64,000 nucleotides of DNA. Origin: a virus. Lineage: Duplodnaviria > Caudoviricetes. This document shows positions 17,746 through 64,000 of this stretch, one piece after another. The translations under genes and the position numbers were made by a program. Below the pieces are notes generated by a model. It saw only the letters and a program-made list of their open reading frames with translations. It searched no databases and was not told the origin of the DNA. Location of the stretch: the IMG/VR virus record IMGVR_UViG_3300023435_000009; one strand, given 5' to 3'. Every line of letters begins with the position of its first letter. The stretch's first letter is position 1.

Positions 17746-18922
17746 TGATACCATTTTGTGCGCCTGCGGTTGTGGTACAGTTATCACAAGGCTTGGACTA
17801 AATGGGAAACCCCGGAAGTACAAACAGGGGCATCAGTGTTTAGGACGGAAGATTATCAAAGATGAGCGGTACTGGGGGATCAGACTTCGAAAATTGCACA
17901 CTAGAGCATCCTTATGTTTGTGCGGTTGTGGAGAGAAAGTGTTGGTGTCAATGAGATGGCTCAAAGAACAATCACAACGGGGGGACCGAAAAAAACGTTC
18001 TGTGTGGTTGCCGAAGTATAAAGAGGGGCATATGCCCCTGACTTATTGTGCCTGTGGTTGTGGGACTTTGATCCCTTCCATGGATTCGAGGAATCATAAG
18101 CGTTCTTTTGTTCCAGGTCACGCTGGGTTTTTGAAGAAAGGGATTGATGTCGTAAATTGGAAAAAACGCAAAGATGAGTGGGGTAAGGCTGCTCCTTTTT
18201 GTGCCTGTGGTTGTGGCGTGCAATTGAAACGTACTGAGAAACAGCTTAGGAGTCATATCCCAGATGCTAAGTATCTATCAGGACATGGGACTCGGAGGGG
18301 TTGTGTTCTTAAGTTGACTCAACAAGAAGAGTCCATTGTTTATGGGTGTCTCTTGGGGGACTTTTCGATCACCATTCCGAAAAAGACGGCCAGACTCGGT
18401 TTCACACATTGCATAGCGCAGAAATTGTATGCCTTACATAAAATAGAAATCTTAAAGAGACTGAGTTGGTGGTGGTGTGAGTTTGAAAGCGGGGGGTATA
18501 AGAAGGGAGGGGGCATGATTAGGGGTACCTCTGCATGTATGCCCATCTTGAATTCGGTTTGGGAAACGGTAAGGCCCTTTGGAGAGGGGAAGCAGGTGAC
18601 CTCTCAATGGCTGGACCACATCGATGAGCGTGCCCTAGCCTATTGGTATATGGATGACGGTTCCTGTGGTGTCCGTTTGGTAGATGGGAGCCCCGCTAGT
18701 TTATCGCTGCATACAGAAGGATTCACAGAGTCTGAAAACTTGTTGTTGGCAAGTTGGTTGCGCCACAAAGGGTATAGGGGGGCTAAAGTAGCCCCAACGA
18801 GAGGGTACTTTTATTTGTATCTCCCAAAATTTGCGGCTAGGAAATTTCTGGCCGATGTTTCTCCTTTTGTCCATTCCTCCATGGGATACAAGTTAGGGGC
18901 AGTGGATGGCACGACTAATTAA
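17738..18922 (+). CDS. Free-standing LAGLIDADG homing endonuclease with N-terminal CxCGCG repeats
   Basis: IVYGCLLGDFSI and ALAYWYMDDGS motifs; four CxCGCG...GH repeats; AT-rich; overlaps both dnaX halves. Confidence 0.85.
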   Translation: MGDDTILCACGCGTVITRLGLNGKPRKYKQGHQCLGRKIIKDERYWGIRLRKLHTRASLCLCGCGEKVLVSMRWLKEQSQRGDRKKRSVWLPKYKEGHMPLTYCACGCGTLIPSMDSRNHKRSFVPGHAGFLKKGIDVVNWKKRKDEWGKAAPFCACGCGVQLKRTEKQLRSHIPDAKYLSGHGTRRGCVLKLTQQEESIVYGCLLGDFSITIPKKTARLGFTHCIAQKLYALHKIEILKRLSWWWCEFESGGYKKGGGMIRGTSACMPILNSVWETVRPFGEGKQVTSQWLDHIDERALAYWYMDDGSCGVRLVDGSPASLSLHTEGFTESENLLLASWLRHKGYRGAKVAPTRGYFYLYLPKFAARKFLADVSPFVHSSMGYKLGAVDGTTN

Positions 18923-24068: not shown

Positions 24069-25262
24069 ATGACACAGAAAGTCTTTGTGATTGACACTGA
24101 CGGGAGGCAGTTACTTCCCACTCACCCAGCACGCTCTAGGAAACTACTGCAAGCTGGTCGTGCTCAGGTACATCAAGTGGTACCCTTTACGATCCAGCTA
24201 ACCCGTGTCGTTGAGGATCCTGTTGGAGCCTTCACTGTTGGTGTTGACGACGGAGCGAAACACGTTGGCATAGCGATGGTAAACGAGCACACCAAGGAAG
24301 TAGTCTTCAGGGGTACCGTCCGGTTACGTCAGGATGTTAAGCGAAAAATGACACAACGGGCAGCGTATAGACGAACGAGGAGAAGTCGGAAGCTCCGACA
24401 TCGTCCAGCTCGATTCCTGAACCGAGGAAGGAAGGGTTTTTTGCCCCCCACTATTCGTCAGAAGAAGGACAGTATACTTCGGGTGATCAGAGATCTTGGG
24501 AAGGTTCTTCACATTACCAAGGCCGTTGTTGAAGAGGGACAGTTTGACATCAGCAGCCTAGCTGCAGGCAGGAAGTTGGTTGGTGCAGAGTTCCAACAGT
24601 CGGAATACGAGGGTCGGAACTTTCGAGCCAAGGTGCTCTGGCGGGATCGCTACAAATGCACACGTTGTGGTTTTACCGAGTGGCTCCAAGCACATCATGT
24701 CAAACCTAAAAGTGTGGGCGGTGGGAATTCTCCGAACAACGGCCTTACCTTGTGTAGAACTTGCCACAAGGAACTTCATGATGGGTTGTGGGCGTTAACT
24801 GCTAAACCCAAGCGGTTCCTTTATCCTGCCCATTTGCAAGCAGGAAAGAAGTACCTGCGGGAAGGGTTGTGTTCATGCGGGCTTGCCGTGAGCACTTGTT
24901 GTGGATGGATGACTAAGTTATGGCGTGACTTCATAGGGCTGCCCAAGGCGCACGATTTCGATGCTGTAGCGATGGTGTGCCGGAGTTACATGCCAAAGAT
25001 AGTGAAAGGGGCGTTCACTATTATCCCTCGTCGAACTAAGGTGTGGGAAGGCAATCCGACGAAGAAGTGCCATGAACGTAGAGGGTTTCGTCATTGGGAT
25101 TTGGTAAAGGCTAGTCATCGTACCCGTGGGATCGTTGTAGGGTCGGTACGGAGTTTAAAGAAGGCACGTTTAACTTTACGTACTGGATGGGACATTAATT
25201 TTCCCGTGTCTTACAGGAAAACACAGTTGCTATGGCGACCAAAAGGTCTGGTGTACATAAGT
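23870..25262 (+). mobile_element. IS200/IS605-superfamily IscB element (non-autonomous, no tnpA)
   Basis: omegaRNA-like leader plus iscB; ends are approximate and share an AGT microhomology (23867-23869 and 25260-25262). Confidence 0.6.
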
Positions 25263-25295
25263 ACGCTTGGGCTTCCCTGTCCAAGAGCCCTATAG
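24069..25295 (+). CDS. iscB: IscB RNA-guided endonuclease
   Basis: PLMP-like (LLPTHPARSRKLL...PFTIQL), RuvC-I VGVDDGAKHVGIA, bridge helix RRTRRSRKLRHRPARFLNR, RuvC-II VVEEGQFD, HNH AHHVKP...NNGLTLCRTCH, RuvC-III AHDFDAVAM. Confidence 0.93.
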   Translation: MTQKVFVIDTDGRQLLPTHPARSRKLLQAGRAQVHQVVPFTIQLTRVVEDPVGAFTVGVDDGAKHVGIAMVNEHTKEVVFRGTVRLRQDVKRKMTQRAAYRRTRRSRKLRHRPARFLNRGRKGFLPPTIRQKKDSILRVIRDLGKVLHITKAVVEEGQFDISSLAAGRKLVGAEFQQSEYEGRNFRAKVLWRDRYKCTRCGFTEWLQAHHVKPKSVGGGNSPNNGLTLCRTCHKELHDGLWALTAKPKRFLYPAHLQAGKKYLREGLCSCGLAVSTCCGWMTKLWRDFIGLPKAHDFDAVAMVCRSYMPKIVKGAFTIIPRRTKVWEGNPTKKCHERRGFRHWDLVKASHRTRGIVVGSVRSLKKARLTLRTGWDINFPVSYRKTQLLWRPKGLVYISTLGLPCPRAL

Positions 25296-33967: not shown

Positions 33968-35406
33968 CTTTTTATACAAAGACACCCACACTAAAAGATG
34001 GGGGGTTTTACAAACGTCTTGAAGGTCACCCGAATACTTTTTTCTAAAGACCTCAATGCAGGCAAGTTTGCCGTCTTAGAGGAACAAGCACGTCGATTAG
34101 GACAACTTCGTTCAGAAATATGGCAACGATTCGGATCCATAAATGGCGTTGGGAAATCGGATAGAGAAATCCGAGACGAATGGTTGCAACAGAAAAGAGA
34201 GTTTGATGTTCCAGCCAACGCCTGGAAAGAAACCCTGAGAGACGCTATCTCAGATGTCAGGGCATCCCGAGAAGCTGCAAAGGTCAAAGTACGAAAGACA
34301 ATACATTGTCACACAAAGGACACTGCCGAAAGAAAACATCGGTACACGCTTCTTAAGTCAGATAACTGGACAACTGACCCTTACCTGACTCGTGTCATGC
34401 GAAAGCATTGGAAGCGTGGACACAATCACACACATAATCAAATTATCGTTCGTGCCGACAAGTACAGGATCTTTGAGCTTGATAGTCGGGTTTGGCTCAA
34501 GATACCAGGGCTAACACCACGAAAAATGGTTACAATACCTTTGGACACAACCGTACACCCAACAGGTACTCTCCGACTGATCCTTCGGGACGATAGGGTC
34601 GAGATTCACTACCAAATTGAAGTCAAAAAGGAGAATCGTCACGGAGATACCGTACTAGGTGTGGACAAGGGGTACACAGAAGTCTTTGTAGACTCTGACG
34701 GAGAACACCATGGGAAAGAACTTGGGAAACTGTTATCCTCGGAGTCCGATTACTTAAAAACCAAGCATCAACGACGGAACAAGATCAAAGCAATTACTGA
34801 AAGGAAGCCACACAAAAGAGCGAACATCGAACGAAACAATCTTGGTCGAAAGAAATTGGATCGACGAGATCGGGTTGTGAAAGCCCATGTTCGGGACAAG
34901 GTTTTCAAGGCTGCTCATGCTGTCGTTGACAAGGCAGAGGTAGTTGTTGCTGAGGATCTGACTTTCCCCATTTCTTCGAGGAAATCTTACGGAAGGAATA
35001 TGAACAGGAGACTTTCTGCTTGGACCAAGGGTGTCATTGCGGAGAGTCTTGATTCCGTATCTCAGCGTAGAGGTTCTACGCTTGCACTCGTTAATTGTGC
35101 ATATACATCGCAAGTGGATTCTCGTTATGGTGTTCTTCGTGGACGTCGTAGAGGGGACTCATTTTACTGTTTTGATGGGGTTGTTTTGCACTCTGATGAG
35201 AATGCTGCACGAAACGTTTTGGCAAGACATTACGACTTTGAGATAGGTCGTTGGACTTCATACCGGGAGGTTCGGAGTATTTTGCTTGAACGGACTGAAT
35301 GCCATCGGTTGGGACTGCTCAACCAGGACACCAGTTGCAGACCTGAGGGTCTATCAACGGTGAGCGAATTACCTTTTGGACACATGTCCTACTTAAAAAG
35401 GAACAG
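33961..35406 (+). mobile_element. tnpB-only IS200/IS605- or IS607-type element
   Basis: AT-richer block flanked by AGACG direct repeats (33959-33963, 35405-35409); removal restores terL ...RGRR-TAA overlapping the next ATG. Confidence 0.7.
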
Positions 35407-35413
35407 ACGCTAA
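33998..35413 (+). CDS. tnpB: TnpB RNA-guided nuclease
   Basis: RuvC-I VLGVDKGY, RuvC-II VVVAEDL, VNCAYTSQ, RuvC-III HSDENAARNV; Zn-finger cysteines mostly lost. Confidence 0.85.
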   Translation: MGGFTNVLKVTRILFSKDLNAGKFAVLEEQARRLGQLRSEIWQRFGSINGVGKSDREIRDEWLQQKREFDVPANAWKETLRDAISDVRASREAAKVKVRKTIHCHTKDTAERKHRYTLLKSDNWTTDPYLTRVMRKHWKRGHNHTHNQIIVRADKYRIFELDSRVWLKIPGLTPRKMVTIPLDTTVHPTGTLRLILRDDRVEIHYQIEVKKENRHGDTVLGVDKGYTEVFVDSDGEHHGKELGKLLSSESDYLKTKHQRRNKIKAITERKPHKRANIERNNLGRKKLDRRDRVVKAHVRDKVFKAAHAVVDKAEVVVAEDLTFPISSRKSYGRNMNRRLSAWTKGVIAESLDSVSQRRGSTLALVNCAYTSQVDSRYGVLRGRRRGDSFYCFDGVVLHSDENAARNVLARHYDFEIGRWTSYREVRSILLERTECHRLGLLNQDTSCRPEGLSTVSELPFGHMSYLKRNRR

Positions 35414-48200: not shown

Positions 48201-48335
48201 GTTGCTGAGTTGGCACGGGGGGCCAAGGGGGATCTGAAACGGTGGAAGTCCGCTGCCAAGTTCAAGGACAAGAAGAAGGTCAAGAAGCAGGATGGCGGCG
48301 AGATGACCGGAGGTAAAGCTGATGTGTTCTTCTAA
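39237..48335 (+). CDS. Giant polyvalent protein (2H phosphoesterase, CCA/poly(A)-type nucleotidyltransferase, four HExxH zincin modules, InPase, ParB-like, SH3-like, possible GNAT- and ART-like domains)
   Basis: PHST/PHVT; VVGGAVRN..IKDIDVV..RRDFSFN..FSDDPSRM; HEMGH 41802, HELRH 44400, HEVQH 45708, HELAH 46791; HYGEIRNTEGTDGDKLDVYVG..DEDKVMLGF; VMEGHTRL. Confidence 0.85.
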   Translation: MKRADAENGKKTGDRSDVGLFIPLPGDLASQFPDLGSNDQSVPHSTFLFVGSVPQGREERLLEVVRGVLAELSGPVRAQLASDIEYFVHPAKQRRVAVLPVRFSHDLAAIRWKLRDALVDDGFDVDDSFPLIYRPHVTLEYLNDLDETYVGTVPSGGWSLNGIEVWGLPRVVEVPFSSVSKLAHRHVESKAHHRSVALMKFLSGVARKLGVGNDVYVVGGAVRNFVLDPTGLKYPIKDIDVVIDPVALRRPDASDWFAQKVKRAIPVDVSLVTNSYGVSIVTITGDWILDGVSMAGEVIEIANARTESYGGTAGKGYKPHLVEPATIEEDVKRRDFSFNTLLWRMHDLANGPDQVAILDLTGCGMKDLQDGWMRCPSKPDRTFSDDPSRMVRTIKFMLKYGFKISSEVKASIKKNAPKLKNIPPGHLSNMIIETFFTPGVGKKALLEMDKLGLLEVTRDIARKDKKFRQALANWADAHASVEFIFDLMDLGMPSGKRLGFLKPAQKDRVREITVQMDADGSDAFVRLLEQPGKVLDMPGLITEYGFKGAEIRALVEAARTALLDEPLLASSGRKWEDKIRRRLGKPAGKTAGNEAHVVASKPVVIDEVHLKKLKKDFLTFTRQIKKPKDYDQARYMADAYTRWRVQFEDFIKRLWKYMDGLHWRHPNLFSENDRDYWRRVVGEDTWVLQTENFPLQHPDDYWTEEQCVAEFEQRRGPWVRKVQRGAREAWSRLDDFVSWMETNRLQALQTEGDKVTLEYPEVYKENIDGFQLTFKGIEPDDRAEVKGFLAGLKRYKALAAKRMPLLLRRKLPIVVNSMGEVGLEWGGQYHTRYIDFNLASSSSSGIQNRTVHVLAHEMGHHIFKSLGSKSRKFWDTLIRGDMEPLDLKKIYPLMKAGEDLQWLAFDIEEKDPILALQLTGVSEDWRWKHNVPTKEKVKEFIDGGEVQIHVPKRPITYYASKNPEEAFCEVVGLLVANGPGSVDNEILHWLRVIVPSAKIANLQGVVEVPKNTHPVKVEPPKAKRKQFPFVGYIDFQGIKIDVENKQGDVRKGVSPDGEEWETHMFHHYGEIRNTEGTDGDKLDVYVGDNHDSSLAVVVHQQDPDSGKFDEDKVMLGFDSVEEAIGAYKKQYDQPGFYVEGEHLEMPIGQFWRWVNEDRNKGKKVKDAVVHTAAQHAPSTAPTWFPEVEGRVTDIAASGDNDEGWKAASQRRTAEHNDDYQRREKVLPEDLDFARKHHLPLEEDQYWGTVVPLKALYTKRPQYHIFGMNLGDQKRFVFASIPLSLLVPAQETVSLIGLHRYTEGNVRSDKGVPEVVLCESAFFVMEGHTRLAAERLRGHSRAEVKLFLYDGKKFRKPTDEDLPSSVRLLKRRRRATAAQRIADRYVEGLQINLNVGDPVFYGKWKSSPGTIKDFKTDPKSGDPVVTVEPYPKGRKKPKDLKLLKIRERQPKPEEKKAGMLEPPPAMVKSVLEWVMAVTQSTKAFRAKEDLAKAQDVLQALTALKRDMTKQRGVLEDAVADPKVGVRAEYAALKQYVETLFEDNRRTAVFVQRLVWGPPKFKKFTEAHNKGDLPRYVRSVGDEVDEALADRMKAVKGQVQKLRAGAGGPSKVQPIMPGKELVTRIPVDLRGWKYEGQVTVEKGVKGLVDVITKAMARKTDIDEESRKFFDELMEGNKKQWQSIAVKLDPNQTPHGRWQSATKMLTLKFGGPEKDAAWYRPLIEHELRHVAQDLINFSEGLYDRGGRPSRKMLTPDYTQQDEDAARQKLRAVGIDPRQVAIHHLDDVEFYTDLADAVGEYKRQQPKFDHLPRNETIRFFVGGKANPEVAQELRSLRMHPLPFFTTLKRVPSARGKYQKAVNELLKATGGSATRVALRYLQGKQAGVFQGPPALLKTIQEWALATYAGHILAGVETDLETILDAKGPIKRAIQDMGKGYDEVTKAGSLSVGGSFKFPMTDTFGGSSSLSKSVWGVKRTGEDVYLIGKGDRSVSWKPQQLPWQWGRGPWTLEEVKKHLMPYISRATQRMRSKLDQPVVDPNMPKAVELTLLKRKCLQYTTKAKHYSGKATTKFKLDLSGWKYLPNPREAEKHIKDEEGWDVVKVVLDFKGSQTKGGYWSLKERTLDVEIGAGATSHYIRTPEQARTVSLFETGITQITGTCRHEVQHIGQDALRLAKGLSEDAGLPGRTLRNPDFTPEGRKLHVPEGDAPSGKVHPLRDVEFHTRIQDEIEKFSRFVRKGVVAKAKIKEALHIWVGASPENEMKDPDGKVIMTTQQFFYSLRKYEKGKWQKAVDEFRKGLMRKGLRISSEDIQSAMTQRVRQDQEYFASLLGTVAQIQSEIDAHPDYYSTSDKNRKLWLAWKDLALLGDRLARAVLDQKSIPPGKNKAFELAARAFISIRGTPRDIEKWMVKNKRHINLLNDTVDWPDKSEDEKLKVGAFTVHNTLGLEGADLDRSKKNVQKAESLIRRMPFPKGLKQVLYGDVYIVARLNKTKTWAFYYPRDDNVYVRADTKGVLGETHSLIHELAHRYWEQFASVSKKHAWIRHHAHMSGKSMPAEKMPMPNVGETLPLKIPGAPRGFEPVVSHVHAGKYWFDVPSKDGKTTRTMNYPVHEMAKFLYDRDERTKRRETFPTPYAAKNAEEHFCESTALRALGKLKGSNLDEYDRIWGGSGGRVASQDSSVEAKVDFSGTRWVVAPPSKLDEAQAETVWQVYHTSYGNLGEHISNLSELLSKYQLFWLVDVDGDEKPDAFIAYKKTPAGKKIGVIGSDGSPLAKRLVVRKLLQLFQGNGYYVEASGRPAQMLDSAGVPHVTDQADVEAVMAPKKIHWLGDGKYTRAIGGLGTKEKRLYGHPRIPRARKQARRLATRWLRSSASIPAQQIAARYLEAGAYPTSRLVEGPLIDGHIPPRTPQGRPPAYLYRSMPVAEYEAAVSRGQMRGRPLHAAGEPVFYTLNPGENVLVAIEYRDRDGWDSKVGMGGSTIYAITHDAIPMSRVAELARGAKGDLKRWKSAAKFKDKKKVKKQDGGEMTGGKADVFF

Positions 48336-49152
48336 CTTTATCGGACAGGTTTATTCCTTGCATGATCCTGTGACACAGGAGTTGCGTTATGTTGGACAAA
48401 CAACACACACACTGGAACATCGTTTGAAACAACACTTGAAGCAGTTGAAAAAAAGCACACACAAAAACAACTGGATTCGGTCTCTTCTTCCTAGTCGACC
48501 TTTGATTCGGCACGTTTGTTTCGCTGCCTCTCAGTCTGAATTGGATCTTCTGGAGATAGGCCACATCGCAAAAACAAAAACCTCTGGGTGTCGTCTGACT
48601 AATGCAACTACAGGGGGGAGGGGAGGGAGGCATTCTGCTGAGACCATCGCAAAAATGAGAGTGGCACACACAGGAAAAGTGTTTTCACAGGAGGCTCGAC
48701 AAAACATGTCCAAGGCAAAAAAGGGTCATCCTGTTTCGGAAGAGACCAGACGTAAAATTGCTGCCGCAAATACAGGACATGTGCCATCGCTGGACACTCG
48801 AACCAAATTAAGTTTAGCACTTCTTGGCCATACCGTTACAAGTGAGACGAGACAACGCATCTCAGAGGGTAACAAGGGCAAAGAGCGTACTGCTGCTTTT
48901 CGAAGACATCTATCGAAAATTAACCTTGGAAAGAAACACACGGAAGAGTCTAGGCTTCGAATGTCGGGGCGGGTGATGCCTGAGGAGACCCGACAGAAAA
49001 TTTCTAGGGCATTGAAAGGGCGAGCAAAAGAGGGGATGTCCGAAGAAACCAAGCGTAAGATTTCGGATGCCAAAAAAGGAAAGACACTGTCCTTTGAGAC
49101 CAGGCAACGAATGTCAGAGGCGCAAAAAGTCCGATGGGCAAAACAAAAATGA
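48322..49152 (+). CDS. GIY-YIG homing endonuclease with NUMOD3 repeats
   Basis: VYSLHDP...RYVGQT...RLKQH; repeated SEETRRKI/SETRQRIS units; AT-rich; ggaggt RBS. Confidence 0.88.
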   Translation: MCSSNFIGQVYSLHDPVTQELRYVGQTTHTLEHRLKQHLKQLKKSTHKNNWIRSLLPSRPLIRHVCFAASQSELDLLEIGHIAKTKTSGCRLTNATTGGRGGRHSAETIAKMRVAHTGKVFSQEARQNMSKAKKGHPVSEETRRKIAAANTGHVPSLDTRTKLSLALLGHTVTSETRQRISEGNKGKERTAAFRRHLSKINLGKKHTEESRLRMSGRVMPEETRQKISRALKGRAKEGMSEETKRKISDAKKGKTLSFETRQRMSEAQKVRWAKQK

Positions 49153-55791: not shown

Positions 55792-57089
55792 AGAGAGAAC
55801 GTCTGACGAACAGGGCAGCGTCGGCTCCGCCCGCAAACCCAGGGTACGGTACGGAAGATCAGGATCACCCGGCGCACCAGGCCGATCCGGCACACGGTGA
55901 CTACGCCAAGGGCGACCCTGATGCATGGGCCGAGACCCCGAACCCCCCGCCGTATGCCGAGGGAAACCCCCCTGCGGATCCCGGCTATGACGTCGAGGAC
56001 CAGGATCACCCCGCCCACACGAAGAACCCTCGGGTTCCGAAGGAGGCACGGGGACTCCAGGCTGCCATCCTTTCGATGGCCGAGGCGAAGGCTGACAAGT
56101 GCCTCAAGGTAGCCAAGGCGATGCTTCGGGGTCGGAAGGGCATCACCGCCTCAATGGTCGAGGAGCAGGCATTCACGATGATGGACTGGTCGGATGCCCA
56201 CCTTGCTTCCACTCAGGAGCGACTCGGCGGCGGGTTCCTGGCCGAAGAGTTCGAGGACGACCTCGGTCCGGTGGACATGGACATCCTCGGGGATGACGAT
56301 CTGCCCCCCCCGGACGAGACCGAGTACCTGGAAGACGATGAGTTGGACGCCCTCCTGGCGGATGACGACGAGTTGGACGATGACATGGGCGACCCCATGG
56401 CTATGCTCACTGCCAAGGTCGAGACCCTCACCTCCGAGTTGACCGCCATGAAGGCTGCGGCCAAGAAGGGTGAGGACGACGAGGAAGTCGTAGAGGGCAA
56501 GAAGAAGGCCAAGAAGGGCGAGGACGAGGATGCCCCGGAGGAGAAGGACCCCAAGGAGGTAGATGCCAGCATGTTCGCCTCCGCCGACGAGATGGGCAAC
56601 CCCATCCAGATGACCGCTGAGGATTCGATCCTCAACGAGATCTTCGGTTCCAAGAAGTCTGAGGACGAAGACGAGGAAGCGGACGAGGACGACGATAAGG
56701 AAGCCAAGAAGAAGAAGGCCAAGAAGTCTGAGGACGAAGACGACGTCGAAGAGGACGAGGACAAGGAAGCCAAAAAGAAGAAGGCCAAGAAGTCCGAGGA
56801 CGAAGACGACGTTGAGGAGGACGTTGAAGAGGACGACGACAAGGAAGCCAAGAAGAAGAAGGCCAAGAAGTCCGAGGACGAAGACGACGTCGAGGAGGAC
56901 GTTGAAGAGGATGAGGACAAGGAAGCCAAGAAGAAGAAGGCTTCCAAGCAGCGTCCCCAGCCCCGTAAGCCCTCCAAGGGTGTCAGCCGGGTCGGTTCCG
57001 TGACCCGCACGAGCGGCGGCGAGATCAATGACCTCTCCAAGCTCTGGGAGACCTCCCCCGACGTGTCCGACGTCTTCAACGGCAAGTAG
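55788..57089 (+). CDS. Putative scaffolding protein
   Basis: Very acidic, repeated KKSEDED...KEAKKKKA blocks, duplicated PGY..EDQDHPAH; between protease and capsid genes. Confidence 0.65.
   Translation: MKRERLTNRAASAPPANPGYGTEDQDHPAHQADPAHGDYAKGDPDAWAETPNPPPYAEGNPPADPGYDVEDQDHPAHTKNPRVPKEARGLQAAILSMAEAKADKCLKVAKAMLRGRKGITASMVEEQAFTMMDWSDAHLASTQERLGGGFLAEEFEDDLGPVDMDILGDDDLPPPDETEYLEDDELDALLADDDELDDDMGDPMAMLTAKVETLTSELTAMKAAAKKGEDDEEVVEGKKKAKKGEDEDAPEEKDPKEVDASMFASADEMGNPIQMTAEDSILNEIFGSKKSEDEDEEADEDDDKEAKKKKAKKSEDEDDVEEDEDKEAKKKKAKKSEDEDDVEEDVEEDDDKEAKKKKAKKSEDEDDVEEDVEEDEDKEAKKKKASKQRPQPRKPSKGVSRVGSVTRTSGGEINDLSKLWETSPDVSDVFNGK
56652..56942 (+). repeat. Four imperfect in-frame tandem units (KKSEDED...DKEAKKKKA)
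   Basis: Repeated aagaagtc(t/c)gaggacgaagac starts; variable unit length. Confidence 0.85.
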
Positions 57090-57096
57090 CATTCAC

Positions 57097-57141
57097 AACT
57101 GCAGCCTGGTCTTAGCCATGTTTCAAGACCAGGCTGCAGTT
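57097..57141 (+). terminator. Perfect 17-bp inverted repeat after the scaffold gene (terminator or processing hairpin)
   Basis: aactgcagcctggtctt-N11-aagaccaggctgcagtt, followed by T-rich sequence. Confidence 0.6.
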
Positions 57142-57374
57142 TGGATCTGATACTCTTCGTATTTCCTTGTTTTACATCCCTTGTCTTTTCGTTTCCCCCT
57201 CTTTTGTGTGTAACAAGTAACTTTTCTGCCCGTTTGGGGCGGTAGAACCCTTATATTTGCACCATAAGCATGAAAGGGCAGAAGCCCACTGTCGGTTGTC
57301 ATAGGGGCACCCGGCGGATAGGAACTCGGCGGAGAAATCCACCGGACCTGTAAACAGAGTGCAAGGAGGGTAAA

Positions 57375-58109
57375 ATGCCACTGCACGGACAGGCCAGCGG
57401 CGGGTGGACCGAATCGTCAAGCGCACTGCGGATTTTGAATCTCGGGATTCGGAACTCCATTGGTGTGCTCGCTGACGATGCGTTCACGCAAGCCAACCCG
57501 GTTGCGGTTGCAACAGGGATCTCGACTCGTCTCGACGTCACCCAGGTGGGCGTCCTGAGCGGGTCTGTGTGTTTCGGACGCCCCGCAGCGGGCAACAACT
57601 TCGTAGGTGGTCCCGGTACCAATGCGATCCAGACCCTGATCCAGGCCAGCCCGATTCGGGCACTGACCTACAGGCCTCTCGGCGTGTTCATCAACAGCGC
57701 TTCGGGCAATGCCTACGAGAACACCCCGGCGGTGGCCTCCGGCATCGGTCCCTACGTCAGCGCTATGGGCACCTACGCCTCGGCGCTCTACGAGACCGAC
57801 GTCATCGACACGGTGGCGGATGCGGGTGGTGGTGCAGGTTCCTGGGCCATCGGTGACAACCTCGTTTACACCACGGGCAACGAGCTGATCACCTCACGGA
57901 ACGGTTTCCTGATGCCCAAGTGGCAGGCGTGTTCCGGTGGTGCAGCGCTCATGGCAGTGGCCGGACTCGACCAGCCGGAACTGGCCGCACAGTCCTTCGT
58001 AGGAATCGGCGGCGCAGCCGGTGTGCGTGGTTCCTCCACCATCATCGGTGTGGTCAAGATGGCTCCCGATGCTTTCCAGACGGAAGTCGTCTGGGACCAG
58101 CGGGTTTAA
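57375..58109 (+). CDS. Putative capsid decoration/cement protein
   Basis: G/A/V/T-rich, strong RBS aaggagg, directly upstream of the MCP. Confidence 0.55.
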   Translation: MPLHGQASGGWTESSSALRILNLGIRNSIGVLADDAFTQANPVAVATGISTRLDVTQVGVLSGSVCFGRPAAGNNFVGGPGTNAIQTLIQASPIRALTYRPLGVFINSASGNAYENTPAVASGIGPYVSAMGTYASALYETDVIDTVADAGGGAGSWAIGDNLVYTTGNELITSRNGFLMPKWQACSGGAALMAVAGLDQPELAAQSFVGIGGAAGVRGSSTIIGVVKMAPDAFQTEVVWDQRV

Positions 58110-58121
58110 GGGAGGTACATC

Positions 58122-59000
58122 ATGAGTGAGATGACCAATGCAGTGAAACAGCAGGTAATCGGTGAGTACATCAAGACCCCCGGTGGTCGTGCCAAGCTCG
58201 CCGCCTCCATGACCCAGCCCCTGCGCCTCCGCAGGGACTATGCCGCTGTCGGACGCAAGACCTTCCTGGTCGAGCAGCTTCCCGATGGCGCTCTTCCGAT
58301 TTACGATAAAGACCCCGATGTTACGGCATATGTGGTAGGTGAGGAAGGTCAGAACATCCTCGCCATCACCAAGCCTCGTCGGGTGATCTTCCCGCTGTTC
58401 GAGATCGCCTCGAACCCCGAGATCCCCTTGACCCAGATCAAGGAACGGCGCTTCGATCTGATCGAGCGTTCCCTCGACCTGGCCAAGGCTCAGATCCAGG
58501 CGGCAGAGGACGAGCGGGTCTTCGCAGTCCTCGACTCCATCGCCACGGCGGGCTTCGACTCCCTGGCTGGCCAGATCAACCCCGACATTCCGGTGGTTGC
58601 ACCCGTGTCCGGTGCGGTTCTGTCCGACGCCTTCGGGCTGATCGAGCGCCACGACCTCCGGGTCGCCCGTGTATACATGAACGCCCGTGACTACGCAGAC
58701 CTCCGCAAGTTCGGGCGGGACATCCTCGACATCGAGAGCCAGGCCACCCTGCTGAAGACCGGCCTGATGGCGACCCTTTGGGGCGCTCAGATCATCGTCA
58801 GCCGTCTGGTGCCGGTCGGCACCGTGTACGTTTGCTGCGAAGGGGAACACTTCGGGAGGATTCCGGTTCGTACGGAACTCACCGTCCTCAGCGCCGACGA
58901 CCCGAAGGCACGCACCATCGGTTTCTCGGTCTTCGAGAATTTGGGCATCGGGGCGTTCAACCCTCGTGGCCTCACCCGCCTCACTATCACCCGCGCATAG
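58122..59000 (+). CDS. Major capsid protein (HK97 fold, no delta domain)
   Basis: Highest GC3 bias in the window; PLRLRRDY..GRKTFLVEQLPDGALPIY, FEIASNPEIPL..IKERRFDLIER; follows protease and scaffold; followed by a terminator. Confidence 0.8.
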   Translation: MSEMTNAVKQQVIGEYIKTPGGRAKLAASMTQPLRLRRDYAAVGRKTFLVEQLPDGALPIYDKDPDVTAYVVGEEGQNILAITKPRRVIFPLFEIASNPEIPLTQIKERRFDLIERSLDLAKAQIQAAEDERVFAVLDSIATAGFDSLAGQINPDIPVVAPVSGAVLSDAFGLIERHDLRVARVYMNARDYADLRKFGRDILDIESQATLLKTGLMATLWGAQIIVSRLVPVGTVYVCCEGEHFGRIPVRTELTVLSADDPKARTIGFSVFENLGIGAFNPRGLTRLTITRA

Positions 59001-59009
59001 TCCCATAAT

Positions 59010-59050
59010 TTCGGGGGGTTTGGGCGATGCCTGAACCCCCCGAAGTTGTT
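59010..59050 (+). terminator. Intrinsic terminator after the MCP gene
   Basis: ttcggggggtt...aaccccccgaa hairpin followed by gttgttct. Confidence 0.65.
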
Positions 59051-59186
59051 CTCCCATCCAGATTTCCGTTGCTAAGATAGCCCCAGGACGGTGCGTTCAA
59101 TGGGATCTGCCTGTCCCTGATGCTCCTAGAAACCTGTAGAAACCCTTTTAGGTTTGTGTTACAGTGGGATCCTGATAGGGGGGTGC

Positions 59187-61721
59187 ATGAGGTGGTATGA
59201 AGCAGCCGGGTTGGGCAGGCAAGGGTTGTTTGATCTGTACCAGGAAAAAACGGACAAGGAAATAGCAGCAACGTATGGGGTTACAGATGCCTCCGTGTTG
59301 CAGGCCAGGAGGGGTTTTGGCATTCCTAGCCTGACGATGAGAGAAAGGCGGGAGCTTGTAAACCCTCCTGAGAGAAGCCTTTCCGATCTGACCCCTTCTG
59401 CCTTGGCTGATTTGTATAATCAGATGGGCGATGTGCAGATTGCTAAGATATTTGGGGTTGCCAAACCAGCCATTCAGAGACTGAGACGGAGATGGGGCAT
59501 TGCACCGTTGTCAAAGGCGGACCGCTCTGTGATACGTTCCGTTGCCTTTACAGCGGAACAAAAGGAAATTTGTATCGGGACCGTGTTGGGAGATGGGCAC
59601 ATTCTAAGCAGGGGGGTTCTTAAGGTGGCCCATTCGATTAATCAGCTCACCTATACGAGAAGGATGCACAGCCTTCTGTCCCCCCACACCCGTCCAATGT
59701 TTTACGAAGAAAAAAGGATGCGAGACAGCGGGGCTCTTACTTTCGGGTTTGGCTTCTGTACCGTACAGCATCCATGGTTAGCGCATCTGAGAGAAGTGTT
59801 TTACCCATACGGGGTGAAGGTGTTTCCTGATGATGTTCTACGGAATCTGACTGCTCGGTCTCTAGCCTACTGGTATTTCGATGACGGTCACTTGGCTGAT
59901 GGACTTCCAAGTATAGCTCTCGGGGACTTTACGACCGACGAAGCGCAGCGGATTATCGAAACTGTACGGGACAACTTCTATTTTGATGCATACCAGAGGG
60001 TTTCCTCCTCAACATGCAAGGTGTTCAGGCTTAGGGCTCGATCCGCCGACTCCTTTTACGCCTTGATTCGGGACTATGCGACTCCTGATATGTTCTACAA
60101 GTTGCCGCCTCATCATCGGCCTATTGGGGTGTCCTCTACAGCACTTATAACTCCTGTGACGGTGCCACTGAGTCCTGATCTACCTCAGAGCTTAAGAAGT
60201 CGGTCTAAGCAGTGGACATCCTTGGGCAACACAGAACGTCGTTGTTTGGTAAAGGATGTGGTTGGGTATTGGCGTGGGCAGGGGTTCCCCCATTCGGAAG
60301 CCAAGGTGGCCGAGTTGTTCACATTGTCAGGGCTGGAACAGGCTCAAGTGATTCAGGGGGGTGTTATTAAGGCCCGCCAGGTGGGACAGGCCCTTTGTCA
60401 TGCCTTTTGCCCTCACATATGGAAGGCTCGCAACTGGGACGGCACCCTGAGTCCCATGGCTATCTTCCAGGATGACCGCATGTTGGGGGAGGCGTTACGA
60501 CGAGGACTAGACGCAGATTATGTGCCAAATGGGGCACAAGTTCGGAGAGCGGTTCGTTACTACAAGAGGTCCGGGGTCTATAATTTCAGACCGTCAGCGG
60601 CTAAGGTACTGGTGGATCGTTATTGTATTCCCGGTGGTGTTGTGTGGGATCCTTGTGCTGGATACGGGGGTCGGATGCTTGGCACGGTTTTGTCGAAGCA
60701 GCGCCCACAGTATGTGGCATGTGATCCCCAACCCGAGACCTACGTGAGTCTCCTAAAATTCCAGGACTGGTTGGATGATTACGTCCCTGGGGTTACACAG
60801 AGAATTAGTCTTCACAACATTCCAGCGGAGGATTTTAACCCCCCTGACGTTGATATGGTCATGACATCTCCTCCTTACTGGAAGAAGGAGATGTACGGGG
60901 ATGGTGCAAACCTGGCAGGTAATAGATATCCCACATATGAGGCATGGCTGTCAGGGTTTTGGGTGCCTGTCCTTCAGAAAGCTGCGGATGCCCTTAAGCC
61001 GGGTGGTTGGTTGGTTCTGAACGTCGATGATTTTAAAATCGGCAGGAAGGAATACTCCTTGATTCGGGATACCCTGCGGGTTGTCGAAGGTACCGGGGTG
61101 TTTGAGAAGCCTGAGACATACATTTACGCCATGCCTATCGGGAAGGACCAAGAAAATGCTGAGAAGGTCTTTTGTTGGGTGAAAAGGGGGGTGCCAGAGG
61201 GGACGTCTACGGGCCACCAAGGTGCCGTTGTCGTTAGTGCCGAGAAATGTGTAGGCTGTGGGGGCATCTTTCCGAGTCACCTGATGGAGAAGGGGCGATG
61301 CGTCAAGTGTGTAGCAACACCCGTGAAGCGTTTGTGTAAGGGGTGTGGGAAGGAGTTTGAGCCAACTCGGGCGGACCATGAGTTCCATTCGAAGAATTGT
61401 CACGCCAGGTGGAGACGTCGGGAATACAGGAAGACGCACCCGGCAAAAAAAACACGGACGTTCGTATGTGTAGACTGTGGCAGGAAATGGCAGACGGAAC
61501 TGTTGGGGCATTTTACCCGTTGTCTGTCCTGTGCTGAGATTAAAAAGAACCATGCTCGGGACAAGCTGTGTCAGTACCATAAGTGCAGGAGGCCGTTCCA
61601 TGACAACTCCCCCAAGAATTCCATGCAGTATTGCCATCCTGAACACAGAAGACGAGAAAAGTTGTTTCGATTGGGGCAGGCACCGGAAAAATTCAGGAAG
61701 GACGATCCAGTGTTGGGCTAG
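59187..61721 (+). CDS. HTH-LAGLIDADG endonuclease / amino-DNA-methyltransferase / Zn-finger fusion
   Basis: Two HTH repeats; ICIGTVLGDG and SLAYWYFDDG; MTase VWDPCAGYGGR (60639) and TSPPYW (60864); C-terminal CxxC repeats; atypical codon usage. Confidence 0.8.
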   Translation: MRWYEAAGLGRQGLFDLYQEKTDKEIAATYGVTDASVLQARRGFGIPSLTMRERRELVNPPERSLSDLTPSALADLYNQMGDVQIAKIFGVAKPAIQRLRRRWGIAPLSKADRSVIRSVAFTAEQKEICIGTVLGDGHILSRGVLKVAHSINQLTYTRRMHSLLSPHTRPMFYEEKRMRDSGALTFGFGFCTVQHPWLAHLREVFYPYGVKVFPDDVLRNLTARSLAYWYFDDGHLADGLPSIALGDFTTDEAQRIIETVRDNFYFDAYQRVSSSTCKVFRLRARSADSFYALIRDYATPDMFYKLPPHHRPIGVSSTALITPVTVPLSPDLPQSLRSRSKQWTSLGNTERRCLVKDVVGYWRGQGFPHSEAKVAELFTLSGLEQAQVIQGGVIKARQVGQALCHAFCPHIWKARNWDGTLSPMAIFQDDRMLGEALRRGLDADYVPNGAQVRRAVRYYKRSGVYNFRPSAAKVLVDRYCIPGGVVWDPCAGYGGRMLGTVLSKQRPQYVACDPQPETYVSLLKFQDWLDDYVPGVTQRISLHNIPAEDFNPPDVDMVMTSPPYWKKEMYGDGANLAGNRYPTYEAWLSGFWVPVLQKAADALKPGGWLVLNVDDFKIGRKEYSLIRDTLRVVEGTGVFEKPETYIYAMPIGKDQENAEKVFCWVKRGVPEGTSTGHQGAVVVSAEKCVGCGGIFPSHLMEKGRCVKCVATPVKRLCKGCGKEFEPTRADHEFHSKNCHARWRRREYRKTHPAKKTRTFVCVDCGRKWQTELLGHFTRCLSCAEIKKNHARDKLCQYHKCRRPFHDNSPKNSMQYCHPEHRRREKLFRLGQAPEKFRKDDPVLG

Positions 61722-62296
61722 CCCTTCAGTTCGGGTGCATGCTTTTCCAGCCACGCTATAGCGACCAGGGCTGCAGGGCCTGGGATGCCTCCCAGCTTGA
61801 GGGTGGGGACGGACAGTTTGAGGTATTTGTAGAAGAACGTCAGGTGTGCCTCATCCAGGCCGTAGTTTCGGGCAGCATTCACGTAGCCTTCGACGGGGGG
61901 GACCTTTCCCCGGTGCCAGGTTTCCATGTTCATGCTTGTTCTGTAGGCTTCTCCTTCGTAGGTGGCCCGCCATGTCTGGTCAAGAAGGTACCGCACGGGG
62001 AAGAGTGCGTCTCGGGCTTGTACGACGTGTTCGTGTTCATGGGCACAGATGACCATCTGAGCCCATAAGCCGTGTCCAGGGGCCGCTACGCCTACCGTGA
62101 AGGGTGTGTAGATGGTTCTCCCGATGGTGGTGGTGAATTGGGTCAGGAAAGCGTCTTTGTCCAGGATGCCCATCACATCTAGGACACGCCCGATGAGTTG
62201 CATTTCTTCCGCTGACGCTTTGTTCTGAACTTCCGATCCATAGGTCTCGGTCATGTGTGTCCAGAGTGCTTTGACTTGTTCCGGTGTCGGTTTCAT
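61718..62296 (-). CDS. Zincin-like metallopeptidase
   Basis: ICAHEHEHVVQA (HExxH) with a downstream YEGEAY glutamate; overlaps the stop of the adjacent lipoprotein gene. Confidence 0.6.
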   Translation of the reverse strand: MKPTPEQVKALWTHMTETYGSEVQNKASAEEMQLIGRVLDVMGILDKDAFLTQFTTTIGRTIYTPFTVGVAAPGHGLWAQMVICAHEHEHVVQARDALFPVRYLLDQTWRATYEGEAYRTSMNMETWHRGKVPPVEGYVNAARNYGLDEAHLTFFYKYLKLSVPTLKLGGIPGPAALVAIAWLEKHAPELKG

Positions 62297-62526
62297 TCTG
62301 CATTTCCCCAGAGGCAGGAGTGCCCCTCCGTTGTTTCCGCACAATACCATCCGTCCCCTATGTTGCAGTCCATCATGATTATCCAGTGACCCTGAGGGCT
62401 GCACAGTTCTACCCTGTTGTCAGTAGAACAGCGGGAGCGGTTGGCGGGGGCACACTCCTCTCCTTCTGGTGCAAGGGGGCTGCACCCCATAAGGCACAGG
62501 AAAAATAACGTTAGTAGTTTTTTCAT
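62293..62526 (-). CDS. Small Cys-rich lipoprotein
   Basis: MKKLLTLFFLCLMG|C lipobox; six further Cys; RBS gaggagg. Confidence 0.7.
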   Translation of the reverse strand: MKKLLTLFFLCLMGCSPLAPEGEECAPANRSRCSTDNRVELCSPQGHWIIMMDCNIGDGWYCAETTEGHSCLWGNAE

Positions 62527-62666
62527 CTTGATTCCTCCTCCTTTCAGTGTACCCCGAAATCGGAGGTGGTTTCGGTAGAAGTATGATAAACGGCATCTTA
62601 GGTAGGGCCTGTTGTTTGTCCCTTTGGGCGAAGTCACAGAGGTGGCCTACATGTGGGGGATGCCTC

Positions 62667-63185
62667 GTGCCTGAGACCTTCAGAAACCGAGACTGTGTGA
62701 CGTTTAACAAGTCCGACACAGTCACGTCTGAGGTAGATGACGCTCTGGCTACTAATGGTTGGCCCGGCGGCGTGGCTGTTAACTGGGCTACTGACCCGGT
62801 AGAGCGGTTCGCTGTGACTCGGTCTGATGGAGCTGGGATGGGGTTCCTCCTCAAAGGTTCCGATGAGGTTGGGGACAGGTACACGGCGCAGACCAGGAAT
62901 CAGGTGTACTACAGGGTGGCGACCCTTTGTTTCGGTGGCTGGTTGATGATGACGACTTCCTTCGAGCGTTACACCTGGGCGTCTCGTCAAGTTGGACCCC
63001 TGGTGGAGATTCCGTATGCTGAGAGCGACCGTTTGCACTTTTCCAATAGGGGCTTGTGGACGAACGAGGATGAGTGGACTCTTTCCGGTGACCCGAGAGC
63101 ACCTAATTCACAAGTGGTGGGGACTGTGATGCAGGTGCCCACCGTAGCCAACGACCACTTCATAACCATCCAGACGTTGCTGTAA
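62667..63185 (+). CDS. Virion protein paralog family, copy 1
   Basis: MPETFRNRDCV...NGWPGG..W...GFLLKGSDE...WTNEDEWTLSGDPRAPN. Confidence 0.65.
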   Translation: MPETFRNRDCVTFNKSDTVTSEVDDALATNGWPGGVAVNWATDPVERFAVTRSDGAGMGFLLKGSDEVGDRYTAQTRNQVYYRVATLCFGGWLMMTTSFERYTWASRQVGPLVEIPYAESDRLHFSNRGLWTNEDEWTLSGDPRAPNSQVVGTVMQVPTVANDHFITIQTLL

Positions 63186-63706
63186 TGCCTGAGATCATCA
63201 GAACACGAGACTGCGTGGCACACTTCAAGGGTGATGCCTACCCCGTGGCCATCTCAGACGTCCTGATTACGAACGGGTGGCGTGGTTGCCAGGGTGTGAT
63301 GTGGACGGACTCCCCTGAAGACGAGTTCATGGTAACTCTCTCTGACGGTATGTTTGGTGGGTTCCTTCTTTGGGGGTCTGACGAGGTTCCTGACATGTTT
63401 ACGGGGATGTCGGGGAATCAGGTCCGAGAGGGTTATGGTATTTTGTGTACTGGGGGCTGGTTGTTATCCACCCCTGTGTTCGAGCAGTTCACATATGCCA
63501 GTCGGGTGGGTGGTCCTCCATTGGTCCCCCTCGTTTACACTGCGGGAGAGCGCCTCTTGTTTTCCCTCAGGGGTCGATGGACAAATGAGGATGAATGGAC
63601 CCTGTCTGGTGATCCTAGAGCGCCTAACGATAACTTTGCTGGTAGTGTCTGTCAGCCCCCTCGGACGCTGAACAACAACTGCCTAGTTCTGACGACGGTT
63701 TTGTAA
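63185..63706 (+). CDS. Virion protein paralog family, copy 2
   Basis: MPEIIRTRDCV...NGWRGCQGVMW...GFLLWGSDE...WTNEDEWTLSGDPRAPN. Confidence 0.7.
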   Translation: MPEIIRTRDCVAHFKGDAYPVAISDVLITNGWRGCQGVMWTDSPEDEFMVTLSDGMFGGFLLWGSDEVPDMFTGMSGNQVREGYGILCTGGWLLSTPVFEQFTYASRVGGPPLVPLVYTAGERLLFSLRGRWTNEDEWTLSGDPRAPNDNFAGSVCQPPRTLNNNCLVLTTVL

Positions 63707-64000
63707 TGGCAAGAAAACTCATCACTGAGATCGTCCGGGCACGGGACAGCATCGTCTTCTACAAGGTGGACTCTACGACCGTCACAATAGATCCGGTTAT
63801 GTTGGCTGCGGGGTGGTCCGGTGGTCAGGGTGTGCAATGGGTTGCAGGGGTCGATGACGAGCGCACAATAACCTTTTCTGATGGTCGGTTTGGTGGTTTC
63901 CTTATCTGGGGTTCCGACGAGCTTGCAGACCAACTCACTGCTGTCACGGATAGTCAGGTGGCTTACCGATACACCACAATGCTGTTCGGTGGGTGCCTCT
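63706..64000 (+). CDS. Virion protein paralog family, copy 3 (runs off the window)
   Basis: MARKLITEIVRARDSIV...AGWSGGQGVQW...GFLIWGSDE; open to the window end. Confidence 0.65.
   Translation, partial: MARKLITEIVRARDSIVFYKVDSTTVTIDPVMLAAGWSGGQGVQWVAGVDDERTITFSDGRFGGFLIWGSDELADQLTAVTDSQVAYRYTTMLFGGCL

Follow-up and report, generated by a model that had tools for sequence, protein, structure and literature searches.

A LAGLIDADG nuclease fused to a predicted DNA methyltransferase in a variable slot behind the capsid gene of huge phages

Gene organization of the capsid-proximal locus

A 64,000-nucleotide stretch of phage DNA (Duplodnaviria; Caudoviricetes; IMG/VR virus record IMGVR_UViG_3300023435_000009), referred to here as the window, was found to encode a LAGLIDADG homing-type nuclease and an amino-methyltransferase (MT) within one polypeptide. 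The corresponding gene (P0001; 59187..61721, plus strand) is a single open reading frame (ORF) of 844 amino acids (aa), which extends from an ATG at 59187 to a stop codon at 61719-61721. A G-rich ribosome-binding site is located directly 5' of this ATG, and a TTG at 59154 represents a possible other start. The gene starts 187 nt downstream of the stop codon of the major capsid (head) protein (MCP) gene (58122..59000, plus strand; phrog_2522, E-value 9e-47), which constitutes the left border of a variable slot.

The combination of the two activities in one chain was proposed in a previous annotation of the window made from its sequence (the original prediction), and is borne out by Pfam, by a match to I-SceI and by an AlphaFold2 (AF2) model, all of which agree. 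The structural details given at that time, i.e. two helix-turn-helix (HTH) units, two LAGLIDADG motifs, MT motif I preceding motif IV and several CxxC units, are likewise all correct. The AF2 model of the full fusion protein, based on a 54-sequence alignment, reached a predicted local distance difference test (pLDDT) score of 90.3 and a predicted template modelling (pTM) score of 0.76.

The 292-aa MCP exhibits 78-96% aa identity among phages whose neighbouring head genes share only 30-58%, and is thus an unusually frozen capsid protein given such a diverse clade of huge phages.

The HTH repeats and the LAGLIDADG domain

The N-terminal region of the protein encompasses two HTH repeats (residues ~8-58 and 66-117; 59208..59537, plus strand), which adopt repeated four-helix units in the AF2 model and are likely to be accessory DNA-binding modules. 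The Pfam family HTH_23 scored under its cut-off in the window protein and over it in relatives. These repeats are followed by a monomeric, two-motif LAGLIDADG_2 nuclease domain (residues ~120-311; 59544..60119, plus strand), which was identified by Pfam (PF03161, residues 127-285; 76.1 bits against a cut-off of 25) and by a match of the family profile to I-SceI (E-value 1e-25). Both of its motifs, LGDG (residues 134-137; 59586-59597, plus strand) and FDDG (residues 231-234; 59877-59888, plus strand), align to the corresponding motifs of I-SceI. Superposition of the nuclease part of the AF2 model on I-SceI (1r7m) yielded a Z-score of 22.0 and a root-mean-square deviation (rmsd) of 3.2 over 202 residues, with the pseudo-dimeric alpha-beta-beta-alpha-beta-beta-alpha fold.

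An alignment of 54 homologues shows no variation at residues G135, D136, D232, D233 and G234. Among the LAGLIDADG domains of the loci fetched for this study (designated L plus a number), the Asp residue of motif 1 is kept in 82 of 86 and that of motif 2 in 83 of 86, the exceptions being confined to the degenerate extra LAGLIDADG copy of double-domain proteins of ~1230 aa. One such protein, a 1229-aa form (L001:9468-13157; LR745208.1), carries an extra N-terminal HTH-LAGLIDADG copy with the degenerate motifs LLGNGYM and VWFLDRGGI. The conservation of the catalytic Asp residues argues against a dead nuclease domain, and this half of the protein is best read, from its sequence and predicted fold, as an I-SceI-like homing endonuclease domain that is apparently active.

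LAGLIDADG proteins have been repurposed in other settings, as reviewed by Taylor and Stoddard (2012; PMC3384342), and the MT might here have co-opted the domain for reading sequence or holding on to DNA, with loss of cutting; a targeting role of the domain was also raised by the original prediction. Such a role would fit the range of DNA-binding partners of this MT family, which is found fused to HTH units, zinc (Zn) ribbons and a MucR zinc finger, with ESM Atlas clusters adding an I-TevI DNA-binding domain and ParB_N, and would also fit the long-term stability of the fusion (43-54% identity). Non-cutting LAGLIDADG relatives usually lose their metal-binding Asp residues, however, and in the present family these residues are (nearly) invariant in both motifs, with exceptions only in the degenerate double-domain copy. 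Their retention in 82-83 of 86 domains weakens the notion of a mere targeting module, which is therefore not established and is considered improbable.

The methyltransferase module and its zinc-binding tail

A short linker separates the LAGLIDADG domain from a helical 'head' (residues 334-462; 60186..60572, plus strand), which is part of the MT module: hidden Markov model slices of the head and the core (MThead and MTcore) co-occur, and the head accompanies the core always, including in stand-alone proteins of 393-407 aa. No alignment listed in the structure search starts before approximately residue 30 of the model, so this search barely covers the head and says nothing on the novelty of its fold.

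The S-adenosylmethionine (SAM)-dependent amino-methyltransferase core (residues 463-668; 60573..61190, plus strand) was identified through Pfam, PHROG and its motifs. Motif X (YNFRPS..., residues 465-477; 60579-60617), motif I (DPCAGYGGR, residues 488-496; 60642-60674) and motif IV (MTSPPYW, with TSPPYW at residues 560-565; 60861-60881), all on the plus strand, are invariant in the alignment of 54 homologues, as are the Cys pairs of the C-terminal tail. The Pfam family N6_N4_Mtase (PF01555) matched the window protein with 27.9 bits (cut-off 26.7) and relatives with 36.5-45.9 bits. These relatives match PF01555 twice, with profile positions 160-217 (motif I) located upstream of positions 1-61 or 1-108 (motif IV onward). 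Since the two matches occur in swapped order, the core represents a circular permutation of the beta-class DNA amino-methyltransferases, in which motif IV comes first and motif I lies near the C-terminus, an order that the MT core does not follow. The closest solved sequence relative is TTHA0409 of T. thermophilus (2zie; E-value 3e-9), and faint matches to N4CMT were obtained. TSPP and DPC.G.GGR are invariant across deeply diverged MT subfamilies, and the invariance of the motif I and IV residues speaks against a dead MT domain. As both the LAGLIDADG Asp residues and the MT motifs stay invariant, the two halves of the protein are under purifying selection.

The C-terminal tail (residues 685-830; 61239..61676, plus strand) is built from four Zn-binding units of the knuckle or ribbon kind and ends with a CGNR-like one. 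It has CxxC units at residues 688, 705, 717, 761 and 779 and a Cx4C unit at residue 795. The zf-CGNR family was weakly matched in the window protein and matched with an E-value of 1.8e-7 in one relative.

When folded separately by AF2, the MT module reached a pLDDT of 94.4, and the best structural neighbours of its core were the tRNA N2-methylguanosine enzymes TrmN, Trm11 and Trm14 (Z-score 17-19, rmsd 2.1-2.7; for 3tma, Z-score 18.8 and rmsd 2.1 over 175 residues). Foldseek with the full model matched the MT part to generic Rossmann methyltransferases only. The resemblance to the tRNA enzymes, together with an identical motif order and a weak match of one relative to UPF0020/RMKL-like proteins, could indicate that the enzyme methylates guanine N2 in tRNA or rRNA. 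We regard this as highly improbable. The lead of TrmN, Trm11 and Trm14 over generic Rossmann methyltransferases amounts to only ~1.5 Z units. Furthermore, no THUMP or other RNA-binding domain was detected in the fusion protein by Pfam. Sequence searches hit families of DNA methyltransferases, namely both halves of PF01555 and the corresponding PHROG groups, and the modules fused to the MT or found beside it all bind or cut DNA.

Genomic context points in the same direction. MT relatives located outside the capsid-adjacent slot occur without a nuclease and are found in replication or nucleotide-metabolism modules. For example, the stand-alone MT gene of Vibrio phage 2.058.O is surrounded by genes for a helicase, a dCMP deaminase and a thymidylate synthase, and owes its annotation as an N4-cytosine methylase to a TSPP[FY] signature. 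Among the other off-slot relatives, some have a C5 DNA methylase or DNA polymerase as their neighbour and some are joined to MucR/HTH DNA-binding modules. We infer from these matches and this context that the MT acts on DNA. The methylated base is probably N4 of cytosine, given the TSPPY motif, which we take to be the PROSITE signature of N4-cytosine enzymes.

Conservation of the fusion

Homologues that span 96-100% of the fusion protein at 43-54% identity make up more than 60 protein clusters, on contigs of up to 528 kb from many samples, and the exact window protein is present on 18 contigs. In the ESM Atlas, clusters with the fusion architecture are all viral and comprise 255 and 57 members. 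The scan of viral contigs required an alignment-based query, as P0001 alone matched nothing. An artificial joining of two genes by misassembly or a frameshift would find some precedent in a distant clade that does have separate nuclease and MT genes, yet it is practically negligible as an explanation, in view of the full-length fusion in more than 60 independent clusters and of an AF2 model that is confident across the domain junctions.

Besides the order seen in the window, the MT family includes the domain orders HTH-LAG-HTH-MT, HTH-LAG-MT-HTH and Zn-...-MT (LAG, LAGLIDADG). Members of the Zn-...-MT subfamily (713-751 aa; L129:7086-9245, L005:4570-6708 and L071:5762-7963) carry two repeats between the Zn ribbon and the MT, with the invariant patterns GE..P[FY]D..NVK and GE..YDF..NVR. 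This N-terminal region had no match in Pfam or PDB profile searches. Atlas structure neighbours of the region are named 'Restriction endonuclease' at weak similarity (TM-score 0.56-0.58), and, as a lead only, the repeats may be PD-(D/E)XK-like nuclease domains.

The variable slot downstream of the MCP gene

In loci that had been collected through the MT, the MCP gene was always located 150-250 bp upstream, as if the MT gene were fixed beside it and inherited vertically. This impression was overturned by MCP-anchored loci (80 of more than 577 MCP loci) and reflects selection bias, as the former loci had been picked through the MT itself. The MCP-anchored loci revealed a hypervariable stretch between the MCP stop codon and a conserved backbone of genes (c1-c2-c3-c12-c13-c10). 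This slot was shown to contain the full fusion, other MT module orders, solitary HTH-LAGLIDADG genes (up to three in tandem), unrelated cargo or nothing, the last being the case in L112, where c1 follows 200 bp after the MCP gene. Intact solitary LAGLIDADG genes without an MT were observed in L131 (three), L147 (two) and L087.

The unrelated cargo comprises a SAM decarboxylase, a SAM-lyase-like protein, a Dam-type methyltransferase, a helicase and TnpB, and the recurrence of SAM- and methylation-related genes suggests an island of anti-restriction cargo. In the cassette-free loci L096 (2595-3026), L119 (1593-2456) and L144 (6957-7832), the first gene after the MCP gene encodes a SAM decarboxylase, a SAM-lyase-like/DUF3293 protein and a Dam-type (D12) DNA methyltransferase, respectively.

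To place this variability on a phylogeny, a maximum-likelihood tree of two flanking head genes from 73 distinct phages was used (the flank tree). Slot content requires at least 29 state changes on this tree, compared with 40.3 +/- 2.1 for shuffled labels, and presence or absence alone requires at least 12. The border of the slot is sharp: DNA homology stops 3-8 nt past the MCP stop codon in four independent pairs of related phages. For example, a locus with a small ORF and no cassette (L105; 472 bp) and a locus with the fusion (L110; 2792 bp) share the same borders, i.e. the MCP stop codon and c1. The proposal that the gene was inserted right after the capsid gene is thus supported by the hypervariability of the region between the MCP stop codon and the backbone, by related phages that differ in the slot and by the loss of homology only a few bases past the MCP stop codon.

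A further pair of loci (L019:1-4304 and L107:3900-8203) is 100% identical over 4304 nt up to the LAGLIDADG/MT boundary, beyond which one encodes the MT and the other TnpB; we read this difference as a truncation or replacement that occurred recently where the two domains meet. The TnpB protein of this pair is 620 aa in length, of the IS605 type and encoded on the opposite strand, and the two contigs derive from different samples.

No group I or II intron or other Rfam family was detected in 56500-63000. Similarly, no Hint/intein Pfam domain was present in the fusion protein, and the MCP is complete and ends before the fusion gene.

A sister clade with separate nuclease and methyltransferase genes

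In a second phage clade, whose MCP belongs to the same PHROG and is only ~35% identical to the window MCP, the MT is encoded by a separate gene of 393-407 aa. Identities within this clade are 78-87% for the MCP, 43-67% for the MT and 29-58% for the upstream gene, with one locus (L060) being an outlier in all three. Divergence of the MT thus tracks that of its flanks, which indicates that it is vertically inherited in the sister clade.

The spacer between the MCP and MT genes of this clade harbours a LAGLIDADG_2 gene in L056, a LAGLIDADG_3 gene in L077, a gene for a 634-aa HNH-type homing endonuclease in L060 (phrog_3339, E-value 2e-108) and a resolvase-like endonuclease gene in L074. These four nucleases are mutually non-homologous. 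As one MT is accompanied by four unrelated spacer nucleases, the simplest reading is that the MT is the resident gene, that the capsid-side spot serves as a landing pad for homing endonuclease genes of several families, and that one LAGLIDADG gene among them was later joined to the MT in the huge-phage clade. This reading is in line with the off-slot MTs that lack a nuclease, with the solitary LAGLIDADG genes of the slot and with an AT shift that the fusion gene shares with other selfish-type nuclease genes of the window (see below).

Evolutionary history of the cassette

In pairwise comparisons, MCP identity correlated with upstream-gene identity (rho 0.77), compared with rho values of 0.26-0.35 for MT identity versus flank identity. 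Within fused genes, LAGLIDADG and MT identities correlated with a rho of 0.65. The MT tree was shown to consist of four well-supported subfamilies, which correspond to domain architectures. The closest flank relatives of the window (L082, L083 and L129) form a 98% supported clade with it, and three different MT subfamilies are represented among them. The MT data reject the clade {window, L082, L083, L129} with a log-likelihood difference of 445 (approximately unbiased test, p 5e-141). The history of the cassette therefore conflicts with that of its flanks.

Proposed mode of action

The reading that we prefer, with a probability of roughly 0.5, is that P0001 encodes a free-standing homing endonuclease located beside an ultra-conserved capsid gene and fused to an orphan phage DNA methyltransferase, with both parts active. 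An I-SceI-type LAGLIDADG gene with two HTH helpers would have settled in the slot at the MCP stop codon and, in the huge-phage clade, would have been fused in frame to an orphan MT comprising the head, the permuted core and the Zn-ribbon tail. During mixed infection, the nuclease would cut a capsid-proximal site, probably the cassette-free MCP junction, in related phages, and repair from the carrier genome would copy the cassette in, with the conserved MCP gene acting as one homology arm. The most likely substrate of the MT is phage DNA at a late stage of infection, with N4 of cytosine as the probable position. The MT would mainly represent anti-restriction cargo, with protection of the carrier's own site as a possible extra, and such a role of the MT would stabilize the selfish nuclease.

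Several observations weigh against this reading. Every MCP-adjacent MT examined has a nuclease adjoining or fused to it, which is a hint of real functional coupling. Divergent phages did not yield any near-identical cassettes, and the pair with the greatest excess has 60% identity for the MT versus 40% for the flanks, which gives no evidence of recent homing. Moreover, the differential loss of old tandem paralogues may explain part of the incongruence between cassette and flanks: L005/L083 has two family members in tandem, one of which is 45% identical to the L129 gene. The structural neighbours of the MT core point to tRNA enzymes, as described above.

The coupling of nuclease and MT could be taken further, as was done in the original prediction, by assuming a one-polypeptide unit that resembles a restriction-modification (R-M) system, in which the MT marks the nuclease's own site and unmethylated rival phage DNA is cut. 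This is unlikely, and keeps some weight because a nuclease accompanies the MT in every capsid-adjacent case, fused or adjacent in two clades whose MCPs are only ~35% identical, and because the layout of nuclease, helical connector, MT (motif I before motif IV) and C-terminal DNA-binding tail parallels that of Type IIG enzymes. The co-variation of LAGLIDADG and MT (rho 0.65) is in line with such a unit, the MCP is conserved enough that mutational escape from cutting may be costly, and the second fused subfamily may, as a lead only, carry a PD-(D/E)XK-like domain. Conversely, the intact solitary LAGLIDADG genes in the slot (L131, L147 and L087) argue against an obligate link, a variant that is 100% identical up to the LAGLIDADG/MT boundary has TnpB in place of the MT, orthologous MTs pair with four unrelated nucleases, and MT relatives elsewhere occur without a nuclease. 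In addition, LAGLIDADG enzymes recognize ~20 bp, whereas methyltransferases usually recognize short motifs. A self-protecting one-gene unit is therefore not established, being weakened in particular by the solitary nucleases, the four-nuclease comparison and the nuclease-free MTs.

In its most specific form, functional pairing would imply a LAGLIDADG-based phage weapon of the R-M type, with HNH and PD-(D/E)XK-like sister versions, that places an N4-cytosine mark and cuts the capsid locus of unmarked rivals; this form is rather doubtful.

Relation to known systems

The preferred reading, i.e. a homing endonuclease joined to an orphan MT, can be set beside several characterized systems. The nuclease domain shares its fold with I-SceI and I-WcaI (PF03161; Z-score 21-22, ~26% identity over ~200 residues) and has the same two Asp-bearing motifs. 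Unlike these enzymes, it is free-standing rather than intron-encoded and is combined with two N-terminal HTH repeats and a 500-residue MT/zinc-finger part. As for the Seg and Mob enzymes of T4-like phages ('intronless homing'), the gene is an intergenic nuclease gene beside a conserved gene, patchy in its distribution, AT-shifted and one of several families found at one site. Seg and Mob enzymes are GIY-YIG or HNH enzymes that are not known to be fused to a methyltransferase, whereas the window nuclease is a putatively homing LAGLIDADG protein with a methyltransferase.

The MT module resembles PF01555 DNA methyltransferases (TTHA0409, 2zie; N4CMT, 8s9n) in that both family halves match and TSPPY is invariant. 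In contrast to these enzymes, motifs X and I precede motifs IV to VIII, as in gamma-class and Trm11-like enzymes, and a helical head and a Zn-ribbon tail are present. The single polypeptide with a nuclease, a connector, an MT and a C-terminal DNA-binding part is reminiscent of Type IIG/IIC enzymes (MmeI or BpuSI type). The nuclease of the latter is a non-specific PD-(D/E)XK domain that shares a recognition domain, whereas that of the window is a LAGLIDADG domain with its own long specificity. A review of Type II enzymes published in 2014 (PMC4081073) lists the catalytic classes PD-D/EXK, HNH, GIY-YIG, PLD and half-pipe, and does not mention LAGLIDADG.

The nearest published parallels are homing elements hosted by orphan methylase genes of actinophages, i.e. 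a LAGLIDADG intein and a ShiLan/HNH insertion (Gosselin 2023, PMC9957025; Arsenault 2025, PMC11855218). In these cases too, a phage orphan methylase is physically coupled to a homing nuclease, with a patchy distribution and a reticulate history. The actinophage nucleases are insertions inside the methylase gene (an intein or an out-of-frame ORF), whereas the window protein is an in-frame N-terminal fusion, is encoded next to the capsid gene and belongs to another methylase family.

A full-text literature search returned no description of a LAGLIDADG-methyltransferase fusion, and the gene family is thus apparently undescribed as well as widespread in huge phages. As a single-chain fusion, it is stable and always directly follows the capsid gene in these half-megabase phages, with both halves apparently active as judged from their motifs. 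What the present analysis adds is the comparison with the sister clade, the MT relatives that lack a nuclease, the SAM-related genes of the slot, the counts of changes on the flank tree, the variant with TnpB and a negative outcome for a recoded patch of the MCP gene (see below). If the nuclease and the MT were coupled, they would add a sixth nuclease fold to R-M biology and reveal a means by which huge phages compete, and a true LAGLIDADG R-M weapon would drive capsid-gene conversion and be without precedent among R-M-type systems in having LAGLIDADG catalysis. If they were uncoupled, the family would be a clear natural case of a selfish nuclease that secures its persistence by fusing to useful cargo, with an ultra-conserved capsid gene beside which nucleases of at least four unrelated families have landed. 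In both cases, a rare-cutter linked to a methyltransferase may interest enzyme engineers.

Codon usage, other selfish genes and the proposed target patch

The fusion gene has a GC content of 0.52 and a GC content at third codon positions (GC3) of 0.56, compared with 0.57-0.62 and 0.65-0.80, respectively, for core genes. Its relative synonymous codon usage (RSCU) distance is ~2x that of genes of similar length, and the AT shift is common to all parts of the fusion. The codon usage had been described as non-native, which holds with respect to the AT shift and the RSCU distance, but the deviation is less extreme than that of the four other selfish-type nuclease genes of the window. These four genes, which exhibit the lowest GC3 in the window (0.43-0.50), encode a LAGLIDADG_2 protein (17738-18922), an RRXRR-HNH protein (24069-25295), a TnpB-like protein with a Cas12f1-like TNB domain (33998-35413) and a GIY-YIG protein with NUMOD3 (48322-49152).

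A patch of the MCP gene (58278-58349) had been put forward as a recoded cleavage target. GC3 is indeed low at 58290-58337 (3/8 codons in two successive blocks, compared with 5-8 elsewhere). When aligned with 93 distinct relatives, the window was found to depart from well-conserved bases three times across the patch, the third positions of which vary across the MCP family. The densest 48-nt cluster of such departures in the window MCP gene contains four, which ranks 85 of 94 sequences. The patch therefore represents a local GC3 dip rather than an outlier and was rejected as an immunity recoding or target site. The only MCP columns that split LAGLIDADG-plus from empty loci lie in the last codon (58995-58996), a signal that arises because this codon marks the cassette border.

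Other features near the fusion gene

Between the MCP and fusion genes, a G/C-rich hairpin with the arms TTCGGGGGGT and ACCCCCCGAA (59009..59049, plus strand) was seen by direct reading of the sequence. It lies just behind the MCP stop codon and is a possible terminator or attenuator; its loop exceeds the size allowed in a simple terminator scan, which therefore missed it.

On the other side, a convergent gene of phrog_13834 (unknown function; 61718..62404, minus strand) overlaps the stop codon of the fusion gene by 4 nt. Its product contains a HEHEH stretch, and the gene was observed on the minus strand of the same slot in eight related loci, with the fusion present or absent. Further downstream, the window encodes three tandem paralogues of ~170-210 aa without a family match (62547-63185, 63185-63706 and 63706-63999), and the same triplet is also present behind the slot in L082 and L129.

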